From Pseudomonadota bacterium (lineage in GTDB: Bacteria > Pseudomonadota > Alphaproteobacteria > Sphingomonadales > Sphingomonadaceae), in the NCBI GenBank assembly GCA_040388765.1, contig JAZKBG010000005.1:17045-81044 (forward strand): a stretch of DNA of 64,000 bases, read 5' to 3'. Positions 4,625 to 58,899 of the stretch are shown piece by piece. The notes under the pieces are model-generated. The model did not search any database, was not told where the DNA came from, and worked only from the letters and a program-made list of their open reading frames with translations. The number at the start of each line of letters is the position of its first letter. Positions within the stretch are counted from its first letter, which is position 1. The position numbers were made by a program, and so were the translations under genes.

Positions 4625-4686
4625 CCCTCATTGGTACGTGCTGCAGCAGGGTCACGCAATCGCCCTCGTCTTCTTGAAACAATTCT

Positions 4687-4700: not shown

Positions 4701-4752
4701 GAAATGGGTAGCGAAACGAGATTGAGTCGGCAAAGTCCGCACTGGGAGAGGG

Positions 4753-7269: not shown

Positions 7270-7278
7270 GATCACGCC

Positions 7279-27288: not shown

Positions 27289-27389
27289 TTTGACGTGACC
27301 CCCGCCTTTCATCCAGCGGCAACCAGAGACCGACCGTTGTTTGAGGGTCCCCCGGTTTCTCATCCAGATCGAGGGTGAGTATCCGGCGT

Positions 27390-28490: not shown

Positions 28491-28571
28491 CGTCAGCTCC
28501 TTCCTCGCGGGTCGTCACAAGGCCGGAAAACTCTCATTCAATCCGGAGGAAAAAACAGGGGGGACGTCAAG

Positions 28572-28966: not shown

Positions 28967-29023
28967 ATGGCTTCCTTCCACTCCAACGAAAGGATCGCAC
29001 CATCAAACCGTGGGATCAAACAA

Positions 29024-34715: not shown

Positions 34716-34717
34716 CG

Positions 34718-35605: not shown

Positions 35606-35635
35606 TGGCGTATCCTGTTATCGTTGCTGCGGGGG

Positions 35636-36136
35636 TCAGGCGATGTTGTGATAGCCACCTCGCCAGTGGACGAGCGGCGGCCTGTCGTGGTGGCGCGCGT
35701 GCATTACGCGGCCCAGAAAGATCGCGTGATCACCGCCGGGAAACTCGGCGACCCTCTCGCATTCGATCCATGCGAGCGCACCCGGCAACAGGGGTATGTC
35801 TGCCATGCCGGTCGCCGCACGGAGCGCAGCGAAGCGATCGACCGGAGCGCAGAATCGCCGGGACACTTCCTCCTGGTCAGCGGCCAGGATGTTGGCCGCG
35901 AAGTGGCGCGCCTTGCTGAAAACCGCATAAGAGGGCGCGGTTCGACGCAGGCTCCACTGCACCAGCGGCGGATCGAGTGACAGCGAAACGAACGAACTGA
36001 CGGTGACGCCGTGGGGCGCGCCCTGCGCGTCCCGAGTGGAGATCACGGTCACACCACTGGCCAGGCACGCCATCGCGCCGCGGAACGAATCCGCGCTAAC
36101 GCAGGGTGAAGCCTGCCCCTCGGACCGGCCGTTCAC
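35636..36136 (-). CDS. NAD(P)H-flavin reductase component (HpaC-like)
   Basis: 166 aa. FRGAMACLASGVTVISTRD...HGVTVSSFVSLSLDPPLVQW. GTG start overlaps the hpaB-like stop (GTGA). Confidence 0.85.
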   Translation of the reverse strand: MNGRSEGQASPCVSADSFRGAMACLASGVTVISTRDAQGAPHGVTVSSFVSLSLDPPLVQWSLRRTAPSYAVFSKARHFAANILAADQEEVSRRFCAPVDRFAALRAATGMADIPLLPGALAWIECERVAEFPGGDHAIFLGRVMHARHHDRPPLVHWRGGYHNIA

Positions 36137-37620: not shown

Positions 37621-37701
37621 CCACTCTCTCCCGCCGATCGAAACACCGTACCTGAGAGTATCTAATCCCGGGCGACTGGTTGCCCCAAGCCGAACTTCCA
37701 G

Positions 37702-37722
37702 ACTGTTCGTCTGGTGAACAGT
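37702..37722. promoter_or_regulatory. Candidate operator, 21-bp palindrome ACTGTTC-N7-GAACAGT
   Basis: Perfect 7-bp arms with a 7-nt spacer, abutting the iclR stop and about 80 nt upstream of the hpaB-like start. No U-tract follows, so a terminator is unlikely. Confidence 0.35.
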
Positions 37723-38501
37723 CAGTTGAGGAAACCGATTCTCGCTTCGAGCCGCTCGACGCAGTCGCGCAACGGCTGCAGAAACCGAGCGGCCGCGACC
37801 GCCGGCGTCAGCACCGAAGAAAAGAAAACGATGTTGACCGCACCGATAACATTCGCGTCTCGGCGCACCGGGAGTGCGATTGCGCTAGTACCGGATTCAA
37901 TCAGGCCATGGCTGGCGCCGAATCCATCCCGCCGCGCCTGCTCAATGGCCCGGGTAACTGCGCCATCAACTTCGATCTCACTAGCGTCTTCCCCCGCTGC
38001 GGCGCGCACCAGTTCAAGCGTTTGCGCAAGCTGCCCATCGTCCATTGCCGCCAGCATCGCACGGCCCAGGGCAGAGCGCAGCAGGGGGCGATGCTGTCCG
38101 ATGAGCCGGCGAAAAACCGTCATTGTAGTCCGCGGGTGCGTGGAAGCGGCGATCATCAGGCGCCCGTCCTTGATGACGGCGTAGTCGCTCGGCCAGCCGA
38201 TTCGGACGACAAGCACATCCAACTCAGACTGTGCGGCCTGCGGTTCAAGATCGTCTTGCCGAATCTCCAGCCCGATCCGTTGCACCTTCGGCGCCAGATA
38301 ATAGCGACCGTCGTCGCGGCGCACGGCGAACCCTGCCGCGGCCAATGTCGCCAGCAACCGATAGACGCTGGACCGGTCGATGCCGGCCCGGTTTGCGAGC
38401 GCGGTCGGCGATGACCAGCCCATGTCCGCCATCGCGTCCAGCAACGCAAGCCCGCGTTCCAGAGCCCGAACCTCTCGATAGGGACGGTTCGGCTCGGCCA
38501 T
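37722..38501 (-). CDS. IclR-family transcriptional regulator
   Basis: Start placed at ATG 38501 (MAEPNRPYREVRALERGLALLDAM), which avoids an 80-nt overlap with the TetR gene. N-terminal wHTH and C-terminal effector domain are typical of IclR. Confidence 0.85.
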   Translation of the reverse strand: MAEPNRPYREVRALERGLALLDAMADMGWSSPTALANRAGIDRSSVYRLLATLAAAGFAVRRDDGRYYLAPKVQRIGLEIRQDDLEPQAAQSELDVLVVRIGWPSDYAVIKDGRLMIAASTHPRTTMTVFRRLIGQHRPLLRSALGRAMLAAMDDGQLAQTLELVRAAAGEDASEIEVDGAVTRAIEQARRDGFGASHGLIESGTSAIALPVRRDANVIGAVNIVFFSSVLTPAVAAARFLQPLRDCVERLEARIGFLN

Positions 38502-38511
38502 CAGTATGAAG

Positions 38512-39117
38512 TCACTGCATCCGTTCGGGAAGTTCGAGAAGGAATTCCAAACAGACCTCCCGCTGCGCTCGAAAGGCCTGAAGTCCGACATCTCGGTGAA
38601 TGACGTTGACTCCGATGAGATGCGACAGCGCGAGCAGCGCGGCGGCGGCGGCGCGAGATTTGCTCATCCCCATGTCGCGGTAGATTTCGGCGATGATCGT
38701 GAGTCGCTCACTGTCGACCTCGGAGATGGCGCGGCGCGCCAGTTCGGAAGACCGCGCCCATTCGCGCAGCGCATGTTCGATCGTTCCGCCGGGGACGTCG
38801 CTGCGATCTTCCGATGCAAGTCCTAGAAGGTATGAGAGACGGTCGCGGGGTGTCTCGATCTTCGTGCGCACGAAGCGGCCCACCGCTGAAGTCAGGCTTT
38901 GCTGCCAGAACCGGAGCATTTCGCCCAGCAGCGCGTCGCGGTCCTTGAAATGCCAGTAGAAGCTGCCCTTCGTCACGCCCAGGGCGCGTGCCAGCACCTC
39001 GATGCGGACCTGCGCGACGCCACCATTCCCGACTTCTTGCAGCGCGGCCACGATCCAGTCGTGTTTCGACAGACGCTCTGACTGATCGGCATTTGCCTGC
39101 GCCTGTTGCTTTGCCAT
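38512..39117 (-). CDS. TetR-family transcriptional regulator
   Basis: Start placed at ATG 39117 (MAKQQAQ...). HTH VRIEVLARALGVTKGSFYWHFKDRDALL. Confidence 0.85.
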   Translation of the reverse strand: MAKQQAQANADQSERLSKHDWIVAALQEVGNGGVAQVRIEVLARALGVTKGSFYWHFKDRDALLGEMLRFWQQSLTSAVGRFVRTKIETPRDRLSYLLGLASEDRSDVPGGTIEHALREWARSSELARRAISEVDSERLTIIAEIYRDMGMSKSRAAAAALLALSHLIGVNVIHRDVGLQAFRAQREVCLEFLLELPERMQ

Positions 39118-39191
39118 GTAGACCGCCACCTCCGTTATTGCCTGGGCCGATATCGCAATCGTCGGCAAACCGGAATTACAATGACTCCGGG

Positions 39192-40163
39192 TCAAGCATT
39201 TTCCACATCGAGAACCAGCTTTCCAATGGTGCGCCCGCCTGCAAGTTCCGCAAGCCCCTCCTTGAGCGCCGCGAACGCCACTGTCGCGCCGATTATGGGA
39301 CGGATAGTTCCCTCTGCCAGTGCCGTGGCGAACCCCCTCTGTACCGCAGCGATGCCGGATGGATCAGCATCGAATTTCCAGAACACGCCCCGTGCCGACG
39401 CCGCCTTTACGAGCAGGCGGTTGGCGGGGATCGCGGGAATAGCCCCGCTGGCAAAGCCGACGATAAGAAGACGCCCGCCCCAGGCGAGCGCGCGGACGCT
39501 CTGCAGCGTGATGTCTCCGCCCACCGGATCCAGCACGACATCAATCCCGCCCGGCGCGATCCCGCGTAGCGTTTCGACCCAGTCGGCGGCGCGGTTGTTG
39601 ACGATGGCACTGGCACCGTTGGCGGTCGCCACCGCTGCCTTTTCCGGCGCGGCGGTCGCCGCGATGACGCGCGCGCCGGCGTTGCGTGCGAGCTGCGTCG
39701 CGGCGATGCCGGTGCCGCCCGCTGCGGCGTGTATCAGCACGCTCTCGCCCGCTCGCAAGCCGGCGGTGTCGAAGAGCGCGATCGACGCAGTTGTATAGGA
39801 GATCGGGATCGCGGCGGCCTGTGTGGGGTCTGTGCCCGGCGCGAGACGGATCAGCCGCGCAGCGTCCACTGCGCAATATTCCGCATAGGCGCCCGAGGTA
39901 ACCTGCGCCATCACCAGGTCGCCAACGACAAGATGTGCGAAGCCACCCGTATCGACGACCTGGCCGGCGATTTCCGCACCAAGGATAAACGGCGGATCGG
40001 TCCTGACCTGATATTCGCCGCGCACGCTGATGACGTCGGCGAAATTCAATCCGGCGCGCAGCACACGGACCAGCGCGCAGCCCGCCGGCACGACGGGAAT
40101 GCGAACGTCCCGGATGCTGACGCGGTCCAGCGTCCCATACCCCTCAACCACCCAAGCCTTCAT
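39192..40163 (-). CDS. NADPH:quinone oxidoreductase / zinc-type alcohol dehydrogenase-like (MDR superfamily)
   Basis: Start placed at ATG 40163 (MKAWVVEGYG...). AAAGGTGIAATQLA nucleotide-binding motif. The upstream 118 codons of the tracked ORF are Arg/Gly-rich read-through. Confidence 0.8.
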   Translation of the reverse strand: MKAWVVEGYGTLDRVSIRDVRIPVVPAGCALVRVLRAGLNFADVISVRGEYQVRTDPPFILGAEIAGQVVDTGGFAHLVVGDLVMAQVTSGAYAEYCAVDAARLIRLAPGTDPTQAAAIPISYTTASIALFDTAGLRAGESVLIHAAAGGTGIAATQLARNAGARVIAATAAPEKAAVATANGASAIVNNRAADWVETLRGIAPGGIDVVLDPVGGDITLQSVRALAWGGRLLIVGFASGAIPAIPANRLLVKAASARGVFWKFDADPSGIAAVQRGFATALAEGTIRPIIGATVAFAALKEGLAELAGGRTIGKLVLDVENA

Positions 40164-40244
40164 CGCGCCACCCTCCTGTTGCATCCAGCCATACGCACGG
40201 GTATGTTTTCGGGCAAGGCGCACCGACGTCAGGATATCGAGAGG

Positions 40245-41912
40245 ATGACGACCGCCATGACGACCTCCGCAACGAGCCAGCCCTGGGCCCGCTTCTATAA
40301 TCCGCGCGCCGCGGCGCTGGCGTCGCCCGACCCCATGCCGCTGTCCGTCCTGCTCGATCGGGCAGCGTCGACCTTCGGCGCGCGCCCATGTTCGTCGTTC
40401 GCCGAGGAGAGCTTTAGTTACGCGGAGGTCGCTGCCTTCGTGGAGGACCTCGCCGCCGGTTTCGCCGCGGCGGGCATCGGCGCAGGCGACAGGGTCGGCT
40501 TCCTCGCCCCGGCCCATCCTTCATTCACCGTCTTCACCTTCGCCCTGTGGCACGTCGGCGCAATCGGAGTCGGGCTGAACCCGCTCTATTCCGTCAGGCG
40601 CCTTACCGACCAGGCCAACGATGCTGGACTGAAGGCGATCTTCACGCTCGACGATGCAGCGCTGCTCGGCAAGGCGGCCCAGATCCGGCGCGCGTCGGCG
40701 GTGAAGCCGACGCTGATCGCGACGAGCGCGCGCAGCGGCGATCCCCACGCGCCCGCATCGGTTGGCAACGGCGAAGGCACGCTGACCACTGCTGCCATCA
40801 TGGCTGGAGCGGGCCGGGTCGCACGCGCCACGGTCGACCCGCTCACGCAGCCGGCGGTGCTGCAATATACCGGCGGCACGACCGGCGCGCCCAAGGCAGC
40901 GGTGCTGACCCATGCGAACCTGTCGGTCAACGTCGTGCAGATGCACAGCTGGTTCCCCGAACTGAGGCCTGGTGCGGAATCCGTGCTCGCCGCAGCACCC
41001 GTCACGCATGTGTCGGGCGTCGGACCCATCCAGAACTTCATGGTCAACATTGCAGGCGAGATGGCCTGGATGCCCCGGTTCGACGCCGACGCGGCGCTGG
41101 ACACCATCGAGCAGCGGAGGATTACGTTGCTGTTGGCGCCGCCGACCATGTTCACCGCGCTGCTGCATGCCGCGGAAACGCGCGGCAAGTTCGACTGGTC
41201 GTCGCTGCGCAATGCGCAATGCGGCGCCGCGCCGGTCTCAGTCGAGCTCAAGAAGCGATTTCGCGACGCGACGGGCCTGACGATCACGACCCTGTATGGC
41301 ATGACCGAAACGTCGCCCGCAGCGATCTATTCCTCACCGACCCCGCATCATGAGCGAGCAACCGGTATCCCTCTGCCCTTCACCCAAGTGGAGGTCCGCT
41401 CGACGAGCGATCCGTCGATCCGCATGGCAACCGGTGAGCCGGGCGAGATCTGCATCCGGGGGCCGCAGGTCATGCCGCACTACTGGCAGCGCCCCGATGC
41501 GACCGCGCAGGCGTTCGTCGACGGCTTCTTCCGCAGCGGCGATATCGGCACCATGGACGCCGACGGCGCGGTCACGGTGTTCGACCGGCTGAAAGACGTG
41601 ATCATCGCCAGCGGCTACAACGTCTATCCTGCCGATGTGGAAAGCGCGGTCCTGAAGCACCCCGCGGTGCGCGAAGCCGCAGTGATCGGGGTACCCTGCG
41701 CCTATCGCGGGGAGACCGTGAAGGCGATCGTCAGCCTGCGCGACGCCGCCGGACTCACGATCGAGAATCTGCGGCTGTTCCTGGCCGACCTGCTGTCACC
41801 GATGGAAATCCCCAAATTGCTCGAGATCGTCGACGAGATCCCGCGCAACGAGAACCTGAAGATCTCACGCCTCGCGCTACGCGAGCGCGAGGCCCGGCGA
41901 CGCGAAGGCTAG
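40245..41912 (+). CDS. AMP-dependent acyl-CoA synthetase/ligase (second copy)
   Basis: Start placed at ATG 40245 after GAGAGG. AMP-binding motif LQYTGGTTGAPKAAVLTH. The C-terminal region has the GEICIRGPQVM and GDIG patterns. Confidence 0.85.
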   Translation: MTTAMTTSATSQPWARFYNPRAAALASPDPMPLSVLLDRAASTFGARPCSSFAEESFSYAEVAAFVEDLAAGFAAAGIGAGDRVGFLAPAHPSFTVFTFALWHVGAIGVGLNPLYSVRRLTDQANDAGLKAIFTLDDAALLGKAAQIRRASAVKPTLIATSARSGDPHAPASVGNGEGTLTTAAIMAGAGRVARATVDPLTQPAVLQYTGGTTGAPKAAVLTHANLSVNVVQMHSWFPELRPGAESVLAAAPVTHVSGVGPIQNFMVNIAGEMAWMPRFDADAALDTIEQRRITLLLAPPTMFTALLHAAETRGKFDWSSLRNAQCGAAPVSVELKKRFRDATGLTITTLYGMTETSPAAIYSSPTPHHERATGIPLPFTQVEVRSTSDPSIRMATGEPGEICIRGPQVMPHYWQRPDATAQAFVDGFFRSGDIGTMDADGAVTVFDRLKDVIIASGYNVYPADVESAVLKHPAVREAAVIGVPCAYRGETVKAIVSLRDAAGLTIENLRLFLADLLSPMEIPKLLEIVDEIPRNENLKISRLALREREARRREG

Positions 41913-42229
41913 GCAGGCACCACCACGTGCAGCACGCCGTCGATGCGGCGGAGAGCGTAGGTGGCGACCGGCTCGGTGACGGGAAAGGCGAGCGGCGCTC
42001 CGCTCCGGATGTCGAATCGCCCCGAGTGGACCGGACATTCGATCTCGAACCCTTCGAGCCAGCCTTCGGCCAGAGACGCCTGGCCGTGGCTGCACGTGTC
42101 GGCGATGGCGTAAAACGCGCCATCCATGCGGAAGAGCGCGACCGGGCCGGTCGCTGGCGAACACAGGCGGCGGACGCCGCCATCGGCCATGCCGTCGGCT
42201 TCGGGGACGGCAATAAGCACTTCACTCAT
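41909..42229 (-). CDS. Rieske-type [2Fe-2S] ferredoxin (electron carrier for ring-hydroxylating dioxygenase)
   Basis: 106 aa. CSHGQASL...CPVHSGRF (CxH...CxxH). Size and layout of BphF/CarAc-type ferredoxins. Confidence 0.85.
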   Translation of the reverse strand: MSEVLIAVPEADGMADGGVRRLCSPATGPVALFRMDGAFYAIADTCSHGQASLAEGWLEGFEIECPVHSGRFDIRSGAPLAFPVTEPVATYALRRIDGVLHVVVPA

Positions 42230-42244
42230 GAAAGGATCTTTCGA

Positions 42245-43273
42245 TTAGGCCACGCGGGCCTTGAGCATGTCGAGCGCGACGTCGACGATCATGTCTTCCT
42301 GGCCACCGACCATCTTGCGACGGCCGAGTTCCACCAGGATCTCGCGAGTATCGAGACCATATTCGAGAGCCGCTTTTTCGGCATGACGCAGGAAGCTGGA
42401 ATAGACCCCCGCATATCCCAGCGTCAGGGTTTCGCGGTCGACCCGAACCGGCCGATCCTGGAGCGGGCGGACCAGTTCCTCTGCGGCATCCATCAGCTTC
42501 ATCACGTCGCAGCCGTGTTGCCATCCCTTACGATCGATCGCAGCGATGAACACTTCCAGGGGCGCGTTGCCGGCTCCAGCGCCCATCCCGGCCAGGCTGG
42601 CGTCGATCCGCACCGCGCCTTCCTGGGCAGCGACGATCGAATTGGCGACGCCCAGCGAGAGATTGTGGTGCGCGTGCATCCCGCGCTGAGTCTCCGGCTT
42701 GAGCACACGGTCATACGCACGGAGCCGATCGGCAACCCCGTCCATGTCTAGCGCACCGCCCGAATCGGTGACGTAAACGCAATGCGCACCACAGTTTTCC
42801 ATCACCAGCGCCTGCTGCGCGAGCGCCTCGGCATCGATCATGTGGCTCATCATCAGAAAGCCCGACACGTCCATGCCGAGGTCGCGCGCGATCCGCATAT
42901 GCTGACGGGCAACGTCCGCCTCGGTGCAGTGCGTTGCCACGCGCACTGAGCGGACGCCGAGATCGTAGGCCCGTCGCAGCTCGTCCACCGTTGCGATGCC
43001 GGGCAGGATCAGCGTGGTCAGAACAGCATGCTCCACGACGTCAGCCACCGCTGCGATCCATTCCCAGTCGGTCTGCGCCCCGAACCCATAGTTCAAGGAA
43101 GCACCCGAAAGACCGTCGCCATGCGCGATCTCGATTGCATCGACCCCCGCTTCGTCGAGTGCCCTGCCGATGGCCCGGACATGATCGAGCGTGTACATGT
43201 GGCGCACGGCGTGCATGCCATCGCGCAGCGTCACGTCCTGGATATAGAGGCGCTGATCGGGATTGCGGGTCAT
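42245..43273 (-). CDS. 4-hydroxy-2-oxovalerate aldolase (MhpE/BphI/DmpG type)
   Basis: 342 aa. [17 protein letters not shown] start motif, [16 protein letters not shown]. Confidence 0.9.
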
Positions 43274-44208
43274 GCCGCCACCGTCCGAAGCTTGCGCGCG
43301 GCGATTGCGTCGCCCGTGGCCTGGGCCGACGCTGTCATGATGTCGAGATTGCCCGAGTAACTTGGCAGGTAATCGCCCGCACCCTCCACCTCGAGATAAA
43401 TCGCCGTCTTCAGGCCAATAAAGTCTTCCTGTCCTGGGATCAGGAGCGGCCGGTTCGCGCCGTACCGTTCGAATTGCACTTCTTGCTTGAGCCGGTAACC
43501 GGGGACGTAACGCTGCACCGCCGCCACCATCGTCGCGACCGAAGCGCGCACCGCATCTTCGTCCGCCATGTCCGACAGCGTGAACACAGTGTCGCGCATG
43601 ATCATGGGCGGCTCTGCCGGGTTCAGGATGATGATTGCCTTGCCGCGCTCGGCCCCGCCAACGACTTCGATGGCGCGCGCCGTCGTGCGCGTGAATTCGT
43701 CAATATTGGCGCGCGTTCCCGGCCCCGCCGAGCGAGACGATACGGACGCGACGATTTCGGCGTAGCGAACCCGCGCGACCCGGCTGACCGCGGCGACCAT
43801 CGGGATTGTCGCCTGACCACCGCAGGTCACCATGTTGACGTTCGGTGCGTCCTGGTGCTCGTCGATGTTGACCGGCGGCACCGTGAACGGACCGATTGCT
43901 GCCGGCGTCAGATCGATCACCTGCTTGCCGTCACGGCTCAGAACCGCGTCGTGATGGCGGTGCGCATAGGCGGAGGTCGCATCGAACACGATCCCGATGT
44001 CCGGGTAGGCGTCCATCCCTACCAGTCCGTCGATCCCGTCGTGAGTGGTCGCCACGCCTCGTTCCCTTGCCATCGCGAGCCCTTCCGAGCCGGCATCGAT
44101 GCCCACCATAGCGACCAGTTCCATATTTCCCGGCCGTTTCAGCATCTTGATCATCAGATCGGTGCCGATATTGCCCGAGCCGATTATGGCTGCCTTGATT
44201 CTACTCAC
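43270..44208 (-). CDS. Acetaldehyde dehydrogenase (acylating) (MhpF/BphJ/DmpF type)
   Basis: Start placed at GTG comp(44206..44208) after AGGAGA, giving [25 protein letters not shown] overlap with the CoA ligase stop. The rest of the tracked 630-aa ORF is out-of-frame overlap with the ligase gene. Confidence 0.9.
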
Positions 44209-45794
44209 TCGTTCTCTCCTGGTGGCTGCTGCTCCGCCGCAAGGCCTGCAAGCGTCTTGCGGCAGATCTTGTTCGCAGGAGTCTTGGGGATCGCGTCCAT
44301 CAGCGTCACCGAACGCGGCCGCTTGTACGCGACCAGATGGGCGGCGCAGTAATCCGCGAGGGCGGTGGGGCTGGCCGTTGCCCCGTGGCGCAGCCGCGCG
44401 AAGGCCACGGGCACCTCGCCCTTGCGCGCGTCGGACGTCCCCACCACCGCCGCTTCGGCGACAGCGGGATGGCGCGCCAGCACTTCCTCTATCTCGCGCG
44501 GGTAGACGTTGAAGCCACCGACGATCAGCATGTCCTTGGTCCGGTCGACCAGCCGGAGATAGCCGTCGGCGTCGAACACGCCGACATCTCCGGTGTACAG
44601 CCAGCCATCCGCCCGCCCCGCGCCCTGCCCGCGATAGGCGTGGACGACGCGCGATCCACGGACGCGGATCTCGCCCAGTTGGCCCGTCGGCACCGCGCGC
44701 TCCGGATCGTCGAGCGCCGCGATCGAAACCTCGAGCCCTGGCAGCGGGCACCCGACGGTGCCGAACCTGTGGGTGCCGTCGGTCGGGTTGGCGCAGATTG
44801 GCCCGCCTTCGGTCATGCCGAAGGCTTCGAGGATCGGAACCCCAGTTCGCGCATACCAGGCGGTCAGCGTCTCCATCAGGAACGGCGATCCGCCGCCGGG
44901 ACAGATGCGCAGCGACGACAGGTCGGTGCGATCGATTCCCGCTGCGGTAAGGAGGCCGACATAGATCGCGGCAGGCCCGCCGCTGAACACCGTCACCCGG
45001 TGCCGTTCCAGCGCGGCAAGGACCAGATCGGGCTGGTAGCGGGATATGATCACCACGGGGCTGCGGCAATAGACGGGATTGAGACACCCCATCAGCGAAC
45101 CCCAGACGTGGAACACCGGCGCGACATTCAGCCACACCTCTTGGTCGATGCGGGTCGGCCACGCCTGATGCATCCCGTGGACTATCTCGACCAGGGTGCC
45201 GTGGGGGCGATCGACGCCCTTCGGCACGCCAGTGGTGCCGCCGGTGAAAAGCAAGGTGGCCAGATCGCCGCGGTCGATCCTCACCGCCGGCCGCGTGGCG
45301 GCCTGCGCCACCAGTGCCGGTGTTGACAGGTCGCCTTCGCCGACCACCAGCAGGTGGTCAATGCTGTGCGCAGCGGCGATCCCGCGCGCCGCCCGCGCGC
45401 CGCCGACCCCGGCAATGATGACCTTGGGCCGGGCGATGTCGAAGAGCGGCGCCAGTTCATCCGCGCCATAGCCCGGATTGAGCAGCGCGACCTGCGCGCC
45501 GGCGGCCAGCGCCGCGTAGATCGCGACGTTCGCCTCGATCGAATTCGGCACCAGGATCGCGACCCGCTCCCCTGCCACGCCGATCGCCACCAGCCGCGCC
45601 GCCAGGGCCGCGACCGCGGCGCCATAGTCGCGGTAGCTCAGCGTCCGCTCGCCATCGATCAGGGCGATGCGGTCGCCCGCCGCGTCGACCGCCTCCCAGA
45701 ACATGTCGACGACCGTCGCGAAGTCGGCGCGGCCGAACGCCGCGTCGTCATCCGCAGGCGACGGCCCGCCACCCGCCTGCGTCACGCCGTTCAT
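44205..45794 (-). CDS. AMP-dependent acyl-CoA synthetase/ligase, translationally coupled to the dioxygenase beta subunit
   Basis: 529 aa. [13 protein letters not shown] motif. ATGA overlap with the upstream beta-subunit gene. Confidence 0.85.
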
Positions 45795-46333
45795 AAGAAC
45801 GTATTGATGTTCTTTGCCTGCAACACCGTCTGTTGCAGGCGGATGAGCCGACGCGCGAGCTTCAACGCTCCGGTCCCGTCACGGCGGACGAGGTCCTGGC
45901 GGCGGGCTGTCAGCGTCTGCTCTTCTGTCTCGTTGCGGTGCCGTAGATTGTGGACGAGCGAGTGGACCACCCATTCGTTCGGCAGCGCCGTCGCCTCCAC
46001 CTCGACGTTGCCGACCATGTGGAAGTGCCGGGTGGGCGGGTCCTCCGCCCAGGCGGTGGTCTGCTTGGCGCGATCGACGCGCTTGGTCAGATAATCCAGG
46101 TCGTCGTCGAAAAACGCCATCCGCGTCCGGCTGAGCGCGTCCGCCCTGTCTGCGCGGTAGCGGGCCTGGATCCCGGGCATCCAGTAATGGATGTCGGGCG
46201 CCATCATCGCCAGCCACTCGTCATAGCGCTCCGCGTCGAGAAGCCGCGCCTCGCGATAGAGGAACTGCTCGATCTCGAACGCCAGGTCGCGGTCGACGCG
46301 GGCGGCCCCCGCATTGCCTTCGATGCCGCTCAT
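45791..46333 (-). CDS. Aromatic ring-hydroxylating dioxygenase, beta (small) subunit
   Basis: 180 aa. IEQFLYREARLLDAERYDEWLAMMAPDIHYWMP is typical of the SnoaL-like beta-subunit fold. Confidence 0.85.
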   Translation of the reverse strand: MSGIEGNAGAARVDRDLAFEIEQFLYREARLLDAERYDEWLAMMAPDIHYWMPGIQARYRADRADALSRTRMAFFDDDLDYLTKRVDRAKQTTAWAEDPPTRHFHMVGNVEVEATALPNEWVVHSLVHNLRHRNETEEQTLTARRQDLVRRDGTGALKLARRLIRLQQTVLQAKNINTFL

Positions 46334-47691
46334 CGTGCCGGCACGTCCGACCAGCGGGGTGCGGTCATAAGGTCACTCCAGCGCTGATAGAAAGCGCGGT
46401 GGTTGGCCTCGTTCACCTGATTGCGGTGCACATGCCCCTTCAGTTCGGGGTGGTCGACCTCCGATCCGAGGCCAAGGCCGGTATGCAGCTTGCGACGGCG
46501 CGTGACCACGCCCGCGTTCGACGCGGTGCAATGCTCGAAATTCTCCCCGTCATCCATCTCGAAGATCCCCGCCGGCGAGAACGTTAGCATGACGCCACGC
46601 CGGTATTTTTCCCTCAGGCTGTCCGGCGCGTTGCGATTGAGGAACACCCAGGTGTGAAGCTCGGTCTCGCTCGGGCCTTTCGGATTCCAGGTGCGGAAGG
46701 TGTTGTGCCCGGCAAGGAAGGACAGGTTGGGGAATACCGTTGCGGAGCTCAGCGAGGCAACCATTCGGCTCCGCATCTTGCCGAGGCGTTCGGCGAACTT
46801 TGCTTCGTTCTCGCGCAGATAGTCAACGATCTCCGGCTCGCACAGAGTCGCGGCGTTGCCGATGAAGTCGAGTCCGAACTCCCAGCCATGCCCATTGGCG
46901 TTGACCTGGAACGATCGATCCGCCTTCATTGTCGGCGCGCCGCCGAACAGCGCCTGCAATGCGGAGCTGTGCGTCCAGGTCGCATGGTACGCGTCGCCGA
47001 CGAAGTTTTCGGCCGGGAACTTCCAGTTACATTTGAGCCGCGACTTGATGTTGCCGTCGATGAACTCGATCCCGCCCTCATCGTTGTCGAGCAGCACGTC
47101 GAGATACCAGCGGAAGTCGCCAAGATAATCCGCGAGCGAAGGCGCCTCCGGATCGAAACAGGCAAAGTGCATGCCCCCATAGCTCTCGACCCGCGCATTA
47201 TGCAGCCCGAGCTTGCTGCGGTCGAAGCTGGGGTTGTCCTTGTAAAGTTCCTCGGCCGTCACCCCGGACAGCGACCCGTCCAGCGCATAGGACCAGCCAT
47301 GGAAGTTGCAGGTGAACCGTCGCGCGCTGCCTGCCTCGGCGAAGCACACGCGGTTGCCGCGGTGGCTGCACGAATTGATGAAGGCATGCACCCGGCGGTC
47401 GCGGGCCCGCGCGACGATGACCGCGTCCTCACCCACATAGGTCGTAACGAAATCGCCGACCTCCGGGATCTGGCTGTCATGCGCCACGAAGATCCAGCAG
47501 CGCGCGAAGATACGTTCCATCTCCAGCGCATAGACCTGGGGATCCCAGAAGATCCGCCGATCGATCCAGCCCTGTTCGCCGTCGACCATCGCCCGTATCG
47601 TCGCGGCATCGAGCGGTGCGGAATCCGGGGCCGGCGCCCGGTCGCGCGGCAGCTCCGCCGGCGTAATGCCCTGCCCTAGCGGCGTGGTCAT
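46330..47691 (-). CDS. Aromatic ring-hydroxylating dioxygenase, alpha (large, Rieske) subunit
   Basis: Rieske motif CSHRGNRVC...CNFHGW and mononuclear iron motif ENFVGDAYHATWTH. Start placed at ATG comp(47689..47691), which forms an ATGA overlap with the upstream gene (the tracked ORF begins 17 codons earlier). Confidence 0.88.
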   Translation of the reverse strand: MTTPLGQGITPAELPRDRAPAPDSAPLDAATIRAMVDGEQGWIDRRIFWDPQVYALEMERIFARCWIFVAHDSQIPEVGDFVTTYVGEDAVIVARARDRRVHAFINSCSHRGNRVCFAEAGSARRFTCNFHGWSYALDGSLSGVTAEELYKDNPSFDRSKLGLHNARVESYGGMHFACFDPEAPSLADYLGDFRWYLDVLLDNDEGGIEFIDGNIKSRLKCNWKFPAENFVGDAYHATWTHSSALQALFGGAPTMKADRSFQVNANGHGWEFGLDFIGNAATLCEPEIVDYLRENEAKFAERLGKMRSRMVASLSSATVFPNLSFLAGHNTFRTWNPKGPSETELHTWVFLNRNAPDSLREKYRRGVMLTFSPAGIFEMDDGENFEHCTASNAGVVTRRRKLHTGLGLGSEVDHPELKGHVHRNQVNEANHRAFYQRWSDLMTAPRWSDVPAR

Positions 47692-48512
47692 TCCGCCGGT
47701 CTCATCTGAGCGAAACCCAGGCCGGTCACTGCACCCTCCCACGCGTCATAGGCGATCACCTCGCCCGAGCCGCCGGGCATCGCGCCCATCACGGCCAGGA
47801 AATGCCGTATCTCCATCGCGCCATTGCCTCCTTCGCGCAGGATTTCCTCGTCGGTCAGAGCGAGCAGCGAGTCCGCGTCGCCCGCGACTATGGCATCGAG
47901 CACCATTCGATCGAACGCCGGGTTGGTACGTCCCATCTCGCCCGTGCCGACCCAGTGGCTGATGCCGCCGCTACCCAGCACCACGACGCGCTCTTCGTCG
48001 TTCGCGGCCTCGACAGCAGCCTTCACCATCGCGCCGAATGCGTAAGCGCGGCGCAGCCGCAGGTATGGCGCGACGCCGCTTGCCATATAAACCGCCACCG
48101 TCTTCACCGAGCCGTCCTCCGGCAGGCAGAGGTGGGCCGGCGCCCCGATGGCGTGATCCACGCCGAGCGACCGCGCGACCGCCAGATCGAACCCGACATC
48201 CTGGGCATAATCGAAGATATACCCGGCAAGCGCGGCATTGTGCGGGATCGGACGGCCGGGCAGTCCCGGCAGCTGGTCCACAGGCCCATCGAGCTCACCC
48301 AGGCAGATCAGGATCTGCGGCAGGCATTTCGGGGTGAACAGGATGTAATGATCGGCGCCGACGATCACTGCGGAGGTCGCCCCGAGCGCAACGATACGGC
48401 GCCGGATTTCGACATACGCGTCCATCAGGTGGCTGTTGTCCAGCTTTTTGGGATTAATGAAGACCGTTGGATCGTGCGGCATCATGAAGCCGCCCACTAT
48501 CTTGCCCATCAT
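47688..48512 (-). CDS. Class III extradiol dioxygenase, catalytic (LigB/CarBb-like) subunit
   Basis: 274 aa. GADHYILF, LGVDHAIG and LGSGGISHWVG motifs of the LigB superfamily. Confidence 0.8.
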   Translation of the reverse strand: MMGKIVGGFMMPHDPTVFINPKKLDNSHLMDAYVEIRRRIVALGATSAVIVGADHYILFTPKCLPQILICLGELDGPVDQLPGLPGRPIPHNAALAGYIFDYAQDVGFDLAVARSLGVDHAIGAPAHLCLPEDGSVKTVAVYMASGVAPYLRLRRAYAFGAMVKAAVEAANDEERVVVLGSGGISHWVGTGEMGRTNPAFDRMVLDAIVAGDADSLLALTDEEILREGGNGAMEIRHFLAVMGAMPGGSGEVIAYDAWEGAVTGLGFAQMRPAE

Positions 48513-48793
48513 TACTCTCCCGTGCCGAGCGTCGATGCAAGGGTCGGCATCTTGCTCAGATAGTCAACCATCGACGCGGGCCCATGAAAACCCATATAGA
48601 ATCCCAACAGCAACATCGGGTTCAAGCCGCGCCTGAAGAGTTCAGCGACGTCCATCTCACGAATAAGGGCCTTCTCCTCGTCGCTCAGCGCGTAGCGCGT
48701 CAGGAAGGCCTCAGGCTCGGCGGAATAACCCTTGCGCACCCGCCCCGAATTACCGAGGTCGAAGATACATTGCTCGACAGCGTTGATGCTCAT
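48512..48793 (-). CDS. Small (LigA/CarBa-like) subunit of the two-subunit extradiol dioxygenase
   Basis: About 93 aa from ATG comp(48791..48793) (MSINAVEQCIFDL...LSDEEKALIREMDVAELFRRGLNPMLL), resembling the LigA domain. ATGA overlap upstream and TAATG overlap downstream. Confidence 0.65.
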   Translation of the reverse strand: MSINAVEQCIFDLGNSGRVRKGYSAEPEAFLTRYALSDEEKALIREMDVAELFRRGLNPMLLLGFYMGFHGPASMVDYLSKMPTLASTLGTGE

Positions 48794-49626
48794 TGCGGCG
48801 ACTCCGTCATGGCAAGGAACATGGCGACTTGAGCCAAGAATTCCTCCTCGCGCTCGACCTGCACCCAGTGGCCGCACTGACCGAAGACATGCAACTGCGA
48901 CTTTGCAATGTGGCGATGCGCCCGAATGGCGACGTCAAGCGGGATCATGCGATCCTCCCGACCGTGCAGGATCAGCGTCGGTACGTCGATTGCCTCCAGT
49001 TGCTCAAGCGGGACACCGCGTACCGTCGCACGCCTCCCGTCCGTCGGACGGGGCTGAAGCTCGCGTATCGTCTCAAGCCCGGCGTTGTGCTGAGCCACTG
49101 CGAAACGCGCAGCGATCATTTCGTCGCTCACGATCGCGGGATCGAAGGGAAAGCGGCGCATCATTGCGCCCATATTCTCTAAGCTGGGTTCGAAAGCGTA
49201 ACTGTCCGCCAGGCCGACGGTTTGCTCGAACTCGCCTGCGGGCGTCCCCATGAGCACCAAAGCGCGGACACGATCCGCATGGCGCGCCATCATGGCCAGC
49301 GACAGGGCGCCGCCGAAGCTGTTGCCAACCAGCGTCGCCTCCTCGATCTCGAGCGCATCAAGGATGCCAACGAGGTGCGCCAGCCATAGCTTGATGCCAG
49401 GCTTCTCACCCTCGGGCTTGGGGCTGAAGCCGAAACCTACAATGTCGGGAGCTATGACACGATAGCGCTCCGCCAGTCGGGGGATGATTCGCTGCCAGTT
49501 CTGCCAGGCCGTCACACCCGGCCCGGAGCCGTGCAGCAACACGACCGCGCGACCGGCGCCTGCTTCGTGATAGTTGGTGGTCACGCCACCAATCGTAATG
49601 GTGCGGCCAATGTCGGGAAGTACCAT
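48790..49626 (-). CDS. Meta-cleavage product hydrolase (BphD/CarC/TodF-like alpha/beta hydrolase)
   Basis: 278 aa. VVLLHGSGPGVTAWQNW, nucleophile GNSFGG, C-terminal QCGHWVQVE. Confidence 0.85.
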   Translation of the reverse strand: MVLPDIGRTITIGGVTTNYHEAGAGRAVVLLHGSGPGVTAWQNWQRIIPRLAERYRVIAPDIVGFGFSPKPEGEKPGIKLWLAHLVGILDALEIEEATLVGNSFGGALSLAMMARHADRVRALVLMGTPAGEFEQTVGLADSYAFEPSLENMGAMMRRFPFDPAIVSDEMIAARFAVAQHNAGLETIRELQPRPTDGRRATVRGVPLEQLEAIDVPTLILHGREDRMIPLDVAIRAHRHIAKSQLHVFGQCGHWVQVEREEEFLAQVAMFLAMTESPQ

Positions 49627-49768
49627 GGCAACGCCTCTCCATACTTTATGGTATTGTGCCTAGCATCGCTAAATTTCCAAGTCAATCTGACTGAAAGGGT
49701 TTTATTCGCAGCGCCGGACATTGCCACAGACAATACCAATGCGTATGTTGATCGGCAGGAGGATGCGC

Positions 49769-50554
49769 ATGGGGTGGCTTGAAGGACAGGTGGCGATCGT
49801 CACCGGTGCCGCGTCTGGCATCGGTCGAGCGGTAGCTGTGCGATTTGTGGCTGAGGGAGCGCGCGTAGTCGCTGTTGACCGCGCCGAGAGAGCGCTCGCG
49901 ACGCTGCGGGCAGAGCTCGGTTCGGCCTGCACGTCGGTGGCGGGCGACGCCTCGCTCCCGGACGCCAACGCTCGCGCTGTAGCCGCCGCAATCACCAGCT
50001 TCGGGCGCGTCGACACCGTCATCTCGAACGTCGGAGTATTCGATTGGCACAAGCGGCTCGACCGTCTTTCGCCCGAGGACTGCATGGCCGCGTACGACGA
50101 GATGTTCGCAATTAACGTGCGGTCGCACGCGTTGATGGCTCGCGAAGCATACCCGCATTTGAAGGAGGTCCGAGGCAGCCTTGTGATGACCTGCTCCACG
50201 GCCAGTTTCCGCGGAGGTGGTGGCGGCGCGCTGTATACCGCAAGCAAGTTCGCGGTGCGCGGCCTCGTCTATCAGCTTGCCCATGAATGGGCACCCGACG
50301 TACGGGTCAACGCCGTCGCACCGGGCGGCACCGTGACCGGCCTGTCAGGAATCGATTCGTTGGGCAGCGCCGGACGCCGGCTGGAAGATGACGATCGCAT
50401 CGTCGCGGCAGTTGGAGCGGCCACCCCACTGGGATTCGCGGCCGCCCCGGAGGACCATGCCGGCGCCTACGTGCTGCTCGCATCGGCGGATAACTCGCGC
50501 GGCATGACCGGCACCGTCATCGTCAGCGATGGCGGGTTGCTGGCGAGGATCTGA
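49769..50554 (+). CDS. Short-chain dehydrogenase, cis-dihydrodiol dehydrogenase (BphB-like)
   Basis: MGWLEGQVAIVTGAASGIGRAVAVRFVAEGARVVAVDR resembles the BphB N-terminus. YTASKFAVRGL (YxxxK). Start chosen 6 nt after AGGAGG (the tracked ORF starts at 49721). Confidence 0.8.
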   Translation: MGWLEGQVAIVTGAASGIGRAVAVRFVAEGARVVAVDRAERALATLRAELGSACTSVAGDASLPDANARAVAAAITSFGRVDTVISNVGVFDWHKRLDRLSPEDCMAAYDEMFAINVRSHALMAREAYPHLKEVRGSLVMTCSTASFRGGGGGALYTASKFAVRGLVYQLAHEWAPDVRVNAVAPGGTVTGLSGIDSLGSAGRRLEDDDRIVAAVGAATPLGFAAAPEDHAGAYVLLASADNSRGMTGTVIVSDGGLLARI

Positions 50555-50565
50555 CAGGAGGAAGA

Positions 50566-51348
50566 ATGACCGAGGATGCTGTCCACCGTGCCGCGCTGGA
50601 GCTGCGCGAGGCCTATCACACAGGTGCAATCGACCCAGTCGTAGACCGGCTGGTGCCCAACGACCCCATGATTGCCTATCGAATCCAGGAGATCAACACA
50701 GCGCACTGGATCGCCGAGGGCCGGCAACTGGTAGGTCGCAAGATCGGCCTCACCTCACCCGCGGTCCAGGCCCAGCTCGGGGTTGGCGAGCCCGATTTCG
50801 GCATGCTGTTCGCCGACATGGCGGTCGCGCCCGGCGGCGCCTTCGCGGCGGCGAGCGTGTCGCAGCCGCGCGCGGAGGGCGAACTGGCCTTCGGCATCCG
50901 CCGCGCGCTGACTGATGCCGCGGTCGACGAAGCCGCCGTGGGCGATGCGGTCGAGTGGATGGCGCCCGCGATCGAGATCGTCGGCAGCCGCGTCCGAGAC
51001 TGGCAGATCAGGATCGCCGACACCGTCGCCGACAACGCATCCTCCGCGTGCTACGCCATCGGCGACGACCGCCGCCCCTTCGACCGCGCCGTGATCGACG
51101 CCCTGACGATGGAACTCTTCGAGGACGCCGTGCGGGTGTCGCATGGTCCGGCAACCGCCTGCCTGGGCAGCCCGGTGACGGCGCTGGCATGGCTGGCGCG
51201 CAAGATGGTCGAGGTCGGCCGTCCCCTTGCCGCCGGCGACATCGTGCTGTCGGGCGCGTTCGGACCGCTGGCGCCGATGACGGCCGGCCGCCATTACCGG
51301 CTCGCCATGTCCGGTTTCGCCGACCTCGTCGTCGACTGCGCCGATTAA
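50566..51348 (+). CDS. 2-oxopent-4-enoate (2-keto-4-pentenoate) hydratase (MhpD/BphH type)
   Basis: 260 aa. GRKIGLTSPAVQAQLGVGEPDFGMLF and the C-terminal GDIVLSGAFGP are typical of the family. Confidence 0.85.
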   Translation: MTEDAVHRAALELREAYHTGAIDPVVDRLVPNDPMIAYRIQEINTAHWIAEGRQLVGRKIGLTSPAVQAQLGVGEPDFGMLFADMAVAPGGAFAAASVSQPRAEGELAFGIRRALTDAAVDEAAVGDAVEWMAPAIEIVGSRVRDWQIRIADTVADNASSACYAIGDDRRPFDRAVIDALTMELFEDAVRVSHGPATACLGSPVTALAWLARKMVEVGRPLAAGDIVLSGAFGPLAPMTAGRHYRLAMSGFADLVVDCAD

Positions 51349-51847: not shown

Positions 51848-53011
51848 TCAGGCCGGCTGTCGCAGCGTGACGCCAACCGGGATTTCGCCGATCGTGACCA
51901 TGCGCCACAACGCGATGAGCAGCTTGCGGGCGAGCGCTACGATCATCTTCGTTTTGCGCGTACCGCTCGGGCCCGACGTTCGCGCCCGGTACCATTGGGC
52001 GAGCGCGCTGTCGTTCTGGAACCGCAGGAAGCGCCATGCGAGCTGGATCAGCCCGCGGCGCACGCGGGCGTTGCCTGTCTTCGCCAATCCCTTCTTGAGT
52101 CGCTTGGAGCCACTTTCGTCAGCCGCGCCGGTGAGCCCCGCATAGCGGGCCACCGCTTGTCGGTCGCGCAGGTTGAGGGATAGCACCTCCTGCACCAGCA
52201 TGTCGGCGGTCTCGACGCCAATGCCAATGACGCTGACGATCAAACGCACCATCGCATGTGGCTCCGTCGCGGGGGCCTGCTCCAGACGCGCGAGGCGTGC
52301 CTCCTCGATCACCTTGATCTGCTCGCGGATCATGGTGAGTCGAGCCATATCGCGCCGCAGTTGGTCAATCGTGTTCGGTGGCAGCGGTACACCGTCCGGT
52401 GTCCGCAGCGCGTCAAGGCGCTCGACCGCTCTGCGCAATTTGGGATTGAATCCACGGATCCCGAGCCACGCCAGGATCGCCTTGATGCGGTTGATGATCC
52501 GCGTGCGCTCGCCCACCAGACTTTCCCGCTCCACGGCTCGGGCGTCTGACATCCTCTTCCTCGAGTGTCGGGATCACGACCATCCCACAATGCCAGCGCT
52601 CGCCGCGCAACCAGCCCAGGAAAACGCGCGTCAGCATCGCCGTGTCCAACCGGTCGGTCTTCGCACGGCGATGCTCGCGCGACACCGCAACGCTGGTCGA
52701 ATGGATGACATGCACCTCGATGTCGCGTGCCCGCAGCCACCGCGCCAGCCAGAACCCGTCGCGTGCCGCCCCAAAGGCCAGCGCGACCCGCTTGATCGTC
52801 CTGCCCGCCTTCACAGCCTCTTCACGCCAATGTTCCACTAGGCGCAGCAGCGCGGCTGGATCCGGTTCCAGCTTCTTCAGGGGCTGGCGGTCGAGACCGG
52901 GAACCTGTCCCGCCACAGCCAGCTCGATTCACTCATTTCGACAACGACCGTCACGCTGCTATTCTGCTCAAACGAGACAAGCGAACGGCTCAAATCGTTA
53001 ACCTGGATCAT
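51848..53011 (-). pseudogene. IS110-family transposase, inactivated by two single-nucleotide frameshifts
   Basis: MIQVNDLSRSLVSFEQNSSVTVVVEMSESSWL / (V)AGQVPGLDRQPLKKL...IPTLEEEDVRRPSR / ERESLVGERTRIINRIKAIL...ALARKLLIALWRM. Three frames must be spliced: a missing G near 52917 and an extra G near 52521. Confidence 0.75.
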
Positions 53012-58856: not shown

Positions 58857-58899
58857 AGTAGATCATATATAGCGGACCTTGGAGTAAAGGAGCAAAGCG

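Follow-up and report, generated by a model that had tools for sequence, protein, structure and literature searches.

In a nine-gene operon of a sphingomonad, the gene for an acyl-coenzyme A (CoA) ligase, here termed LIG1, lies directly between the genes for the two subunits of a Rieske ring-hydroxylating oxygenase (RHO) and those for the lower part of a meta-cleavage pathway, which raises the question of whether CoA activation belongs to the degradation of the aromatic substrate and, if so, whether it precedes or follows the attack on the ring. The operon occupies positions 41909-49626 on the minus strand of a stretch of 64,000 nucleotides (hereafter the window) from contig JAZKBG010000005.1 (positions 17,045 to 81,044; assembly GCA_040388765.1; Sphingomonadaceae). 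A preliminary description of the window had proposed, from gene order, a candidate CoA-thioester-dependent ring dioxygenation pathway for an aromatic carboxylic acid, naming the ibuprofen (ipf) cluster as precedent but allowing for a different solution here. Judged from its genes and from those of related loci, the cluster represents an uncharacterized, widely distributed meta-cleavage pathway with an integral CoA module. With regard to the order of reactions, CoA activation before ring dioxygenation is the reading that we prefer, albeit tentatively and short of calling it probable, and the gene context fits this order and the reverse order about equally well.

The evidence for an integral CoA module comes from comparative genomics. 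We mapped homologues of all window proteins, as well as of accessory proteins, onto 87 loci, i.e., 80 genomic loci with members of the alpha-subunit family and seven loci from other look-ups. Counts refer to the 65 loci in which the alpha gene is flanked by at least 8 kb on either side, and to features within about 10 kb; these loci span the Alphaproteobacteria, Betaproteobacteria, and Actinobacteria and are not phylogenetically independent. The conserved core order is LigA-LigB-(ferredoxin)-alpha-beta-SDR-hydrolase, where SDR denotes a short-chain dehydrogenase/reductase acting as dihydrodiol dehydrogenase; the LigA/LigB pair and the dihydrodiol dehydrogenase were each found in 58 of the 65 loci. 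An AMP-ligase is present in 56 loci and a family III CoA-transferase in 17, with one or the other in 62, and 55 loci have a putative reductase, which is either of the medium-chain dehydrogenase/reductase (MDR) family, nitronate monooxygenase (NMO)/FabK-like, or of the luciferase-like (LLM) class of F420-dependent enzymes. Less frequent are a TetR regulator (42 loci), a transporter homologue (34), an indolepyruvate-oxidoreductase-family enzyme (21), and beta-oxidation-type genes (12). The frequencies of CoA-activating enzymes and of reductases indicate, on comparative grounds, that CoA chemistry is part of this pathway. The ligases of the related loci fall into at least five non-orthologous subfamilies that are mutually 23-35% identical, indicating that CoA activation was recruited repeatedly and not inherited once. 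Orthologues of LIG1 itself, at 46-91% identity, are found on the same contigs as orthologues of the alpha subunit, including those at 46-52% identity in Actinomadura, Nocardia, Embleya, Streptomyces, and Pimelobacter; in Sphingosinicella, the LIG1 orthologue is directly upstream of the alpha gene. Since linkage of the ligase spans three classes and several gene orders, the ligase is very probably a genuine pathway component. By contrast, neither of the nearest annotated outgroup loci (the RHA1 etb cluster and pNL1 bphA1b) has a ligase, in line with the preliminary observation that a ligase in this position departs from classical layouts. In full-text literature searches, no paper on clusters of this type emerged, nor does the literature searched describe the combination of an RHO and LigAB with a CumD-like hydrolase, either a CoA ligase or a CoA-transferase, a reductase, and TetR; transcriptome papers on Nocardioides simplex (Pimelobacter simplex carries the cluster) discuss only steroid genes.

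In the window, all catalytic parts of a Rieske dioxygenation and meta-cleavage route are present and intact (Table 1). Pfam and NCBIfam matches back all nine genes that had been named at 41909-49626, and each of the nine open reading frames (ORFs) is free of internal stops. While these genes were correctly recognized, the pathway extends beyond them, into a divergent SDR and hydratase pair (49769-51348) and a convergent module of a second ligase (LIG2), an MDR reductase, and a TetR regulator (38512-41912), all of which had been missed, as had a gene for an indolepyruvate:ferredoxin oxidoreductase-family protein (POR). Both a Rieske CxH...CxxH motif and a 2-His-1-carboxylate iron site can be recognized in the alpha subunit; Cys108, His110, Cys128, His131, His236, His241, and Asp381 are invariant in an alignment of 25 family sequences, and the last three align with His233, His239, and Asp388 of BphAE. 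A beta subunit, a Rieske ferredoxin, and a glutathione reductase (GR)-type reductase (30210-31430) complete a three-component set. By homology, the alpha subunit falls into a large family, none of whose members has been characterized (more than 2000 proteins at E <= 1e-50, the top 120 of which are 57-100% identical to it); the JGI label "ethylbenzene dioxygenase" for this family reflects orthology transfer. A comparison of the alpha subunit with IpfA, BphA, and related proteins, which had been recommended, was run against IpfA and BphA relatives and identified RHA1/DK17 EtbAa1/AkbA1 as the closest characterized alpha subunit (55% identity over 423 residues); a pNL1 bphA1b-type alpha is 53% identical. 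Among solved structures, the alpha subunit matches S. yanoikuyae BphA1f (384 bits), LB400-type BphA (330), HcaE (326), and naphthalene dioxygenase (NDO; 283). Positions that presumably line the BphAE pocket, when mapped onto the alpha subunit, include no Arg or Lys and nothing diagnostic.

The ring-cleavage and CoA enzymes are similarly recognizable. Both LigA and LigB subunits score above their Pfam gathering thresholds, as expected for a two-subunit LigAB enzyme, and the LigB-like subunit is 29-32% identical to CarBb, 31% identical to FlnD1-like enzymes, and 46-51% identical to unnamed plasmid homologues. The hydrolase shows full-length homology to meta-cleavage-product (MCP) hydrolases and a Gly-x-Ser-x-Gly elbow (GNSFGG); its best solved relative is CumD (247 bits, residues 5-275), with HsaD (146) and MhpC (125) further removed and matches to BphD and CarC as well. 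LIG1 is an ANL ligase with a ten-residue core motif and PKTPANK in its translation; it reaches no curated NCBIfam cutoff, including those of substrate-specific models. LIG2 is 32% identical to LIG1, and its position beside the MDR reductase is conserved in alphaproteobacterial loci. The best solved relatives of the MDR enzyme are quinone oxidoreductases, enoyl reductase (ER) domains of fatty acid and polyketide synthases, and 2-haloacrylate reductase.

Table 1. Features of the proposed pathway and its surroundings in the window (scores in bits, curated cutoffs in brackets)
Feature	Position	Strand	Support
MCP hydrolase (alpha/beta fold, C-C bond hydrolysis)	48790-49626	-	Pfam Abhydrolase_1 111; GNSFGG nucleophile motif
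LigA-like small subunit, two-subunit class III extradiol dioxygenase, 93 aa	48512-48793	-	Pfam LigA 31.9 (25.3)
LigB-like catalytic extradiol subunit, 274 aa	47688-48512	-	Pfam LigB 90.8 (26.3)
RHO alpha (Rieske oxygenase), 453 aa, ATG at 47691	46330-47691	-	Pfam Rieske + Ring_hydroxyl_A
RHO beta	45791-46333	-	Pfam Ring_hydroxyl_B 133.8; NCBIfam PRK10069 subfamily 187 (145)
LIG1, acyl-CoA ligase (ANL superfamily), 529 aa	44205-45794	-	AMP-binding 238.9 + AMP-binding_C 74.2
Acetylating acetaldehyde dehydrogenase (DmpF/MhpF type), GTG start	43270-44208	-	TIGR03215 456.6 (282)
4-Hydroxy-2-oxovalerate aldolase (DmpG/MhpE type)	42245-43273	-	TIGR03217 563 (286)
Rieske-type ferredoxin of the oxygenase	41909-42229	-	Pfam Rieske 54.5; HcaC-like 94.7 (113)
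Divergent promoter region, hydrolase operon / SDR-hydratase operon	49627-49768		relatively A+T-rich intergenic stretch
cis-Dihydrodiol dehydrogenase (SDR, HcaB/BphB type), probable start	49769-50554	+	NF004849 309.7 (330); BphB_TodD 221.8
2-Oxopent-4-enoate hydratase (MhpD type)	50566-51348	+	FAA_hydrolase; NF008461 241.5 (350)
LIG2, second acyl-CoA ligase, convergent with the operon, predicted start codon	40245-41912	+	AMP-binding 248
MDR-family NAD(P)H oxidoreductase (quinone-oxidoreductase/enoyl-reductase type), approximate start	39192-40217	-	ADH_zinc_N + ADH_N; PIG3 family 214 (297)
TetR-family regulator	38512-39195	-	TetR_N
TonB-dependent outer-membrane receptor (candidate uptake)	31455-33656	-	Plug + beta-barrel domains
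Ferredoxin-NAD+ reductase (HcaD/BphA4 type)	30210-31430	-	Pyr_redox_2 + Reductase_C; HcaD model 346 (450)
POR, indolepyruvate:ferredoxin oxidoreductase-family protein (2-oxoacid to acyl-CoA), 1198 aa	53335-56931	-	NF009589 1549 (816)

We propose that these genes encode a complete three-component Rieske-dioxygenase and meta-cleavage pathway for a cinnamate- or phenylalkanoate-type aromatic carboxylic acid, the side chain of which would be short. The acid would be taken up through the TonB-dependent receptor here, and through TctC, ATP-binding cassette (ABC), or major facilitator superfamily (MFS) systems in relatives; LIG2 and/or LIG1 would turn it into the CoA thioester, the side chain of which, if unsaturated, would be reduced by the MDR enzyme or, in other lineages, by the NMO/FabK-like or LLM-class enzyme. 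The alpha3beta3 oxygenase, supplied with electrons by the Rieske ferredoxin and the reductase at 30210, would dioxygenate the aryl-acyl-CoA, the SDR would re-aromatize the dioxygenation product, and the LigAB-type extradiol enzyme would open the ring. The CumD-like hydrolase would then yield 2-hydroxypenta-2,4-dienoate and an acyl-CoA (succinyl-CoA for a C3 side chain), and the hydratase, aldolase, and acetaldehyde dehydrogenase would complete the route to pyruvate and acetyl-CoA. In this scheme, we infer the class of substrate, the action of the ligase before the oxygenase, and the presence of the thioester throughout the ring-cleavage steps. The reductase genes are located beside the ligase gene, and the enzymes that they encode are related, among solved structures, to enoyl-thioester reductases (the NMO type to FabK; the MDR type to ER domains and 2-haloacrylate reductase), which suggests conversion of the acid to an enoyl-CoA and then to a saturated acyl-CoA prior to ring attack. 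The wider proposition that a widespread Rieske family runs its entire meta-cleavage pathway on CoA-tethered aryl-alkanoates, with the hydrolase releasing an acyl-CoA such as succinyl-CoA, is one that we hold slightly more tentatively than the early activation itself.

Activation before ring attack is supported by the finding that, in many lineages, the ligase gene is the first gene and is paired with genes for uptake proteins and a TetR regulator. For example, about 20 Burkholderiales loci have a TetR gene, an NMO gene, and then the series ligase-TctC-LigA-LigB-alpha-beta-SDR-hydrolase, and in Pimelobacter the ligase gene is co-oriented with an ABC uptake system and divergent from the oxygenase operon. 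Domain annotation of the genes in the aromatic island did not identify a thioesterase that could release the free acid, which also favors this order, as does a locus of Streptomyces sp. B1866 (L098, 1783-11737) that keeps a LIG1 orthologue with the ferredoxin, alpha, and beta genes on a 19.5-kb contig without an extradiol enzyme (LigAB), SDR, or hydrolase; this locus encodes two AMP-ligases, an LLM-class oxidoreductase, and a 498-aa protein without a Pfam domain. In addition, the lack of Arg and Lys in the alpha pocket and the kinship to alkylbenzene dioxygenases would fit an uncharged linker beside the ring. Several considerations weigh against early activation, however. The arguments in its favor all derive from gene context, the alpha subunit and the ligase are related to the proven CoA-first Rieske system at the superfamily level only, the nearest characterized alpha subunit (EtbAa/AkbA1) acts on free hydrocarbons, and LIG1 appears frameshifted in the near-identical Ant H11 assembly. 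Moreover, in the window LIG1 follows the oxygenase genes and adjoins the lower-pathway genes, which fits activation of a product equally well, and the same is true of the loci L026 and L092, where LIG1 comes directly after the hydrolase gene, and of Burkholderia cenocepacia pBcn842-1, where a CoA synthase gene is located between the hydratase and acetaldehyde dehydrogenase genes. The order hydrolase, MaoC hydratase, SDR, and CoA-transferase (best model, a dicarboxylate-type succinate-glutarate CoA-transferase) in Paraburkholderia-type loci (L004, L053, and L056) even suggests activation of a released (di)carboxylate. Under such a scheme, the ring steps would take place on the free aromatic acid, the ligase or CoA-transferase would activate the (di)carboxylic acid released by the hydrolase, and the reductase, or MaoC hydratase, SDR, and thiolase, would process the resulting acyl-CoA. 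Both LIG1 and LIG2 score moderately on malonyl-CoA synthase and PimA dicarboxylate-ligase models, and precedents exist in the tetralin (thn) pathway, with pimelate activation and beta-oxidation, and in steroid catabolism, where FadD3 acts after HsaD. Yet the simplest substrates would release succinate or fumarate, neither of which needs activation, the ligase-first arrangement with uptake and TetR genes does not accord with late activation, the Streptomyces locus without a hydrolase would be left unexplained, and beta-oxidation genes are confined to the 12 loci mentioned above, with none in the window. We consider late activation only slightly less likely than activation before ring dioxygenation, which remains our preferred reading.

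The nature of the substrate, and with it the remaining explanations for the ligase, can be assessed from uptake genes, of which four unrelated kinds occur in or beside the clusters: TctC, an ABC binding protein, an MFS transporter, and a TonB-dependent receptor. The TctC gene comes right after the ligase gene in the about 20 Burkholderiales loci, and the best solved relatives of its product are terephthalate-binding proteins (212 bits), with BugD (197 bits) nearly as close; an ABC system with a Peripla_BP_6 binding protein adjoins the ligase gene in Pimelobacter and Actinomadura; the MFS transporter is encoded in the Phenylobacterium cluster; and TonB-dependent receptors, which occur in sphingomonads, are encoded in or beside the cluster in the window and in L001, L026, L092, and L091. 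Together with a neighboring module that includes MhpB, these uptake genes favor an aromatic carboxylate over a hydrocarbon, as the preliminary description had suggested, and the substrate is probably a non-volatile aromatic carboxylate of the phenylpropanoid/phenylalkanoate type. Degradation of an alkyl- or alkenyl-benzene, as for EtbA/AkbA, with the ligase and enoyl reductase detoxifying the released aliphatic acid (e.g., a vinyl side chain giving acrylate, acryloyl-CoA, and then propionyl-CoA), would be in keeping with the 55% identity of the alpha subunit to EtbAa1, with the closeness of the hydrolase to CumD, which acts on alkyl-substituted meta-cleavage products, and with weak similarity of the MDR enzyme to acryloyl-CoA reductase models and 2-haloacrylate reductase. 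We nevertheless consider a hydrocarbon pathway improbable, given that the four uptake systems are typical of non-volatile or anionic substrates and that the neighboring MhpB, which scores above its curated cutoff, points to phenylpropanoid acids. It is more improbable still that LIG1 is a general fatty-acid enzyme present in the operon by chance; while its best NCBIfam and JGI names are those of generic long-chain acyl-CoA synthetases, with no curated cutoff reached, LIG1 orthologues travel with the oxygenase across phyla, and the presence of CoA-activating enzymes in 62 of the 65 loci and in neither outgroup locus upholds the initial view that the ligase is part of the pathway and not a stray enzyme. 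Finally, in an ipf-type route, a thiolase/DUF35-type enzyme would remove the acyl side chain from the CoA-activated dihydrodiol, giving a catechol directly. Such a route has a precedent in IpfABDEF (PMC9195938), the sole Rieske system proven to dioxygenate an aromatic acid after its activation with CoA, and the ipf clusters of Sphingomonas Ibu-2 and Rhizorhabdus MPO218 (pIBU218) resemble the window in that a CoA ligase gene is located next to a Rieske alpha-beta pair in a sphingomonad. The Streptomyces locus L098 also encodes a DUF35 protein (zf-ChsH2 and OB_ChsH2_C domains) with 35% identity to IpfE over 88 residues, the only DUF35 or SCPx homologue across the 87 related loci. However, tblastn searches of the 64-kb window with IpfD (SCPx-type thiolase) and IpfE (DUF35) gave no match, consistent with the earlier statement that this pair is missing, and identities to the pIBU218 proteins are low (28% for IpfA and alpha, which is below the values for EtbAa, BphA, HcaE, and NDO; 28% for IpfB and beta; and 30% for IpfF and LIG1), so that the ipf analogy fails as a homology. 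The window cluster differs further from ipf in having a dihydrodiol dehydrogenase, its own LigAB, a hydrolase, and lower-pathway genes. Conservation of the dihydrodiol dehydrogenase argues for classical re-aromatization, with CoA, if present, not serving ipf-style thiolytic removal of the side chain. Neither by homology nor by gene content is the window cluster an ipf system, and an ipf-type route is the explanation to which we attach the least weight, close to none.

Among known systems, the predicted enzyme logic is closest to Escherichia coli hca/mhp, with the alpha subunit being nearest to the EtbA/AkbA alkylbenzene dioxygenases. The shared logic comprises a Rieske alpha-beta pair with ferredoxin and reductase, an HcaB-type SDR, a LigB-superfamily extradiol enzyme, an MCP hydrolase, and a like lower pathway with an MhpD-type hydratase and an MhpE/MhpF aldolase-dehydrogenase pair; a bona fide MhpB is also encoded 8 kb from the operon. 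Hca models are the best NCBIfam matches of the alpha and beta subunits, the ferredoxin, the SDR, and the reductase, although scores remain below the equivalog cutoffs (HcaE, 383 vs. 830; HcaF, 117.5 vs. 230; HcaC, 94.7 vs. 113; HcaB type, 309.7 vs. 330; HcaD, 346 vs. 450), and only the PRK10069 beta subfamily model passes among the Hca-type models (187 vs. 145). Unlike hca/mhp, the window has a two-subunit LigA and LigB extradiol enzyme that is only remotely related to MhpB (78 bits for the operon LigB vs. a cutoff of 286), a hydrolase that is CumD-like and not MhpC-like, and, in addition, two CoA ligases, a reductase, and a 2-oxoacid oxidoreductase. The Rhodococcus EtbAa/AkbA1 clusters (RHA1 pRHL2 and DK17) have the same architecture of alpha-beta pair, Rieske ferredoxin, and reductase, but the etb cluster has a type I BphC extradiol enzyme and lacks a CoA ligase, a TetR-ligase module, and a carboxylate transporter. 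In the thn system of Sphingopyxis granuli TFA, and with FadD3 following HsaD, the acid set free by the hydrolase is activated with CoA by enzymes encoded or regulated together with a Rieske or meta-cleavage pathway; thn, however, combines a type I extradiol enzyme with a CoA-transferase and a complete set of beta-oxidation enzymes, whereas the window has no beta-oxidation genes. CarBaBb and FlnD1D2 share the two-subunit LigA-like and LigB-like form beside an MCP hydrolase and a Rieske oxygenase, but identities are 29-32%, and these enzymes act on biaryl or angular-dioxygenation products with no CoA chemistry. The abietane dit cluster was rejected as a model, as DitA3 is not a Rieske ferredoxin and DitA1 belongs to a distant lineage. 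A link to steroid or estrogen degradation, considered for the HsaD-like, FadD3-like, POR-family, P450, and TonB hits, was also rejected, as all scores fell well short of the cutoffs and Ksh and Hsa genes are absent.

CoA thioesters are known to undergo aerobic ring attack by the diiron epoxidases Paa and Box and by a single Rieske system, ipf; steroid-CoA esters are, moreover, the preferred substrates of KshA. If CoA activation does precede dioxygenation in the family described here, it would be the second case of a Rieske oxygenase attacking a ring aerobically after CoA activation, by a mechanism other than that of ipf, and a full classical meta-cleavage route could run on CoA-tethered intermediates. 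It would also change the annotation of such clusters, the alpha subunits of which now carry the JGI name "ethylbenzene dioxygenase", and would establish a route, common in soil and water, for aryl-alkanoic acids of plant or pharmaceutical origin. There are already precedents for CoA ligases in aromatic clusters; even if activation is late, the conserved set of ligase, reductase, TetR, and transporter genes would mark an uncharacterized, widely distributed catabolic pathway.

The structure of the operon was largely as first described. Seven successive junctions share nucleotides, with overlaps of 4 (ATGA), 1 (TAATG), 4, 4, 4, 4 (GTGA), and 4 nt exactly as had been given, followed by a 15-nt gap before the ferredoxin gene; at the first junction, the ATG of the LigA-like gene overlaps the hydrolase stop codon as ATGA. 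The further claim that the oxygenase pair is "fused translationally" to the ligase holds only in the sense of stop/start codon overlap, as alpha, beta, and LIG1 are separate proteins. Overlaps of 1 or 4 nt are common in this genome and not exceptional, occurring in at least six other same-strand pairs in the window (2169, 8643-8646, 12120-12123, 15906, 36133-36136, and 39192-39195). In L001, the closest metagenomic homologue (alpha 84% identical), the genes at these junctions are instead separated by 5 to 51 nt, indicating that the tight packing is lineage-specific and not a conserved functional feature. Coupling of LIG1 translation to termination of RHO beta is plausible, since no Shine-Dalgarno-like motif is present within 15 nt of the LIG1 ATG. 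A scan for promoters and terminators found no convincing internal signals. The ferredoxin gene (minus strand) and the LIG2 gene (plus strand) end on a common palindromic CTAG at 41909-41912, so that their stop codons overlap and leave no intergenic room for a terminator. In the divergent promoter region, a sigma-70-like match is found at 49721-49749 on the plus strand, and GGAGG at 49758-49762 precedes an in-frame ATG at 49769. While the SDR ORF opens mechanically at 49721, the dihydrodiol dehydrogenase probably starts at 49769, which gives 261 aa, the length of the L001 homologue.

An alpha subunit identical to that in the window (100%) is encoded by Sphingomonas sp. Ant H11, Sphingomonas sp. 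AR_OL41, and one metagenome-assembled genome, and the operon DNA is 97.5-99% identical to the contigs of these assemblies. In Ant H11 (L009 11898-13484, NZ_JSBN01000026.1; otherwise 97.5% identical), LIG1 is split over three reading-frame segments (frames 3, 1, 3), reflecting either draft sequencing errors or a ligase pseudogene in that strain. When the 7.7-kb operon was compared with plasmids by megablast, matches were limited to the aldolase and dehydrogenase genes (70-80% identity), and no close plasmid relative was found. Some contigs have two paralogous oxygenase clusters about 15-17 kb apart, namely L032/L054 on Phenylobacterium NZ_MEEX01000014.1 (66% and 63% alpha identity to the window) and L013/L037 on JAHJHL010000206.1 (91% and 66%), which suggests sub-specialization for related substrates. 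On P. putida S12 pTTS12 (L095, 9700-10846), a TetR gene and a LigA/LigB pair (46% identity to the window LigB) are cut by a Tn3/mer transposon and adjoin benzyl-alcohol and benzaldehyde dehydrogenase genes; this remnant looks like the leftover of a related cluster.

In the remainder of the aromatic island, POR could form aryl-acetyl-CoA from aryl-pyruvates or act on a 2-oxoacid intermediate. No homologues of thiolase, DUF35, enoyl-CoA hydratase, MaoC, or CoA-transferase are encoded in the 64-kb window. A second, separate meta-cleavage module on the minus strand (33768-38591) encodes an IclR regulator, an HpaB-type two-component monooxygenase (402 bits vs. a cutoff of 480), a flavin reductase, an MCP hydrolase, and a LigB-family enzyme, LigB2 (33768-34715), which passes the curated cutoff for MhpB (3-carboxyethylcatechol 2,3-dioxygenase; 324.5 vs. 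291); on these matches, the module is probably a hydroxyphenylpropionate route that shares the lower pathway. Integrase-core (rve) transposase fragments (26723-29632) bound the island on the left, and an IS110-family fragment (51848-52552) is located between the hydratase and POR genes; the island has the appearance of a horizontal acquisition that has partly decayed. Outside it, the window consists of chromosomal DNA carrying uvrB as well as sugar and esterase genes. This part includes a carbohydrate/ester utilization locus (3593-19396) with a LacI regulator, a TonB-dependent receptor, two GH1 beta-glucosidases, two Abhydrolase_3/BD-FAE-type esterases, two more alpha/beta hydrolases, a trehalase-family enzyme, and a GH42 beta-galactosidase, which may free aromatic aglycones or acids from plant glycosides or esters. 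At 58281-60084, a TetR-like regulator gene is divergent from a gene for a cytochrome P450 (weak Pfam match, 37.9 bits).

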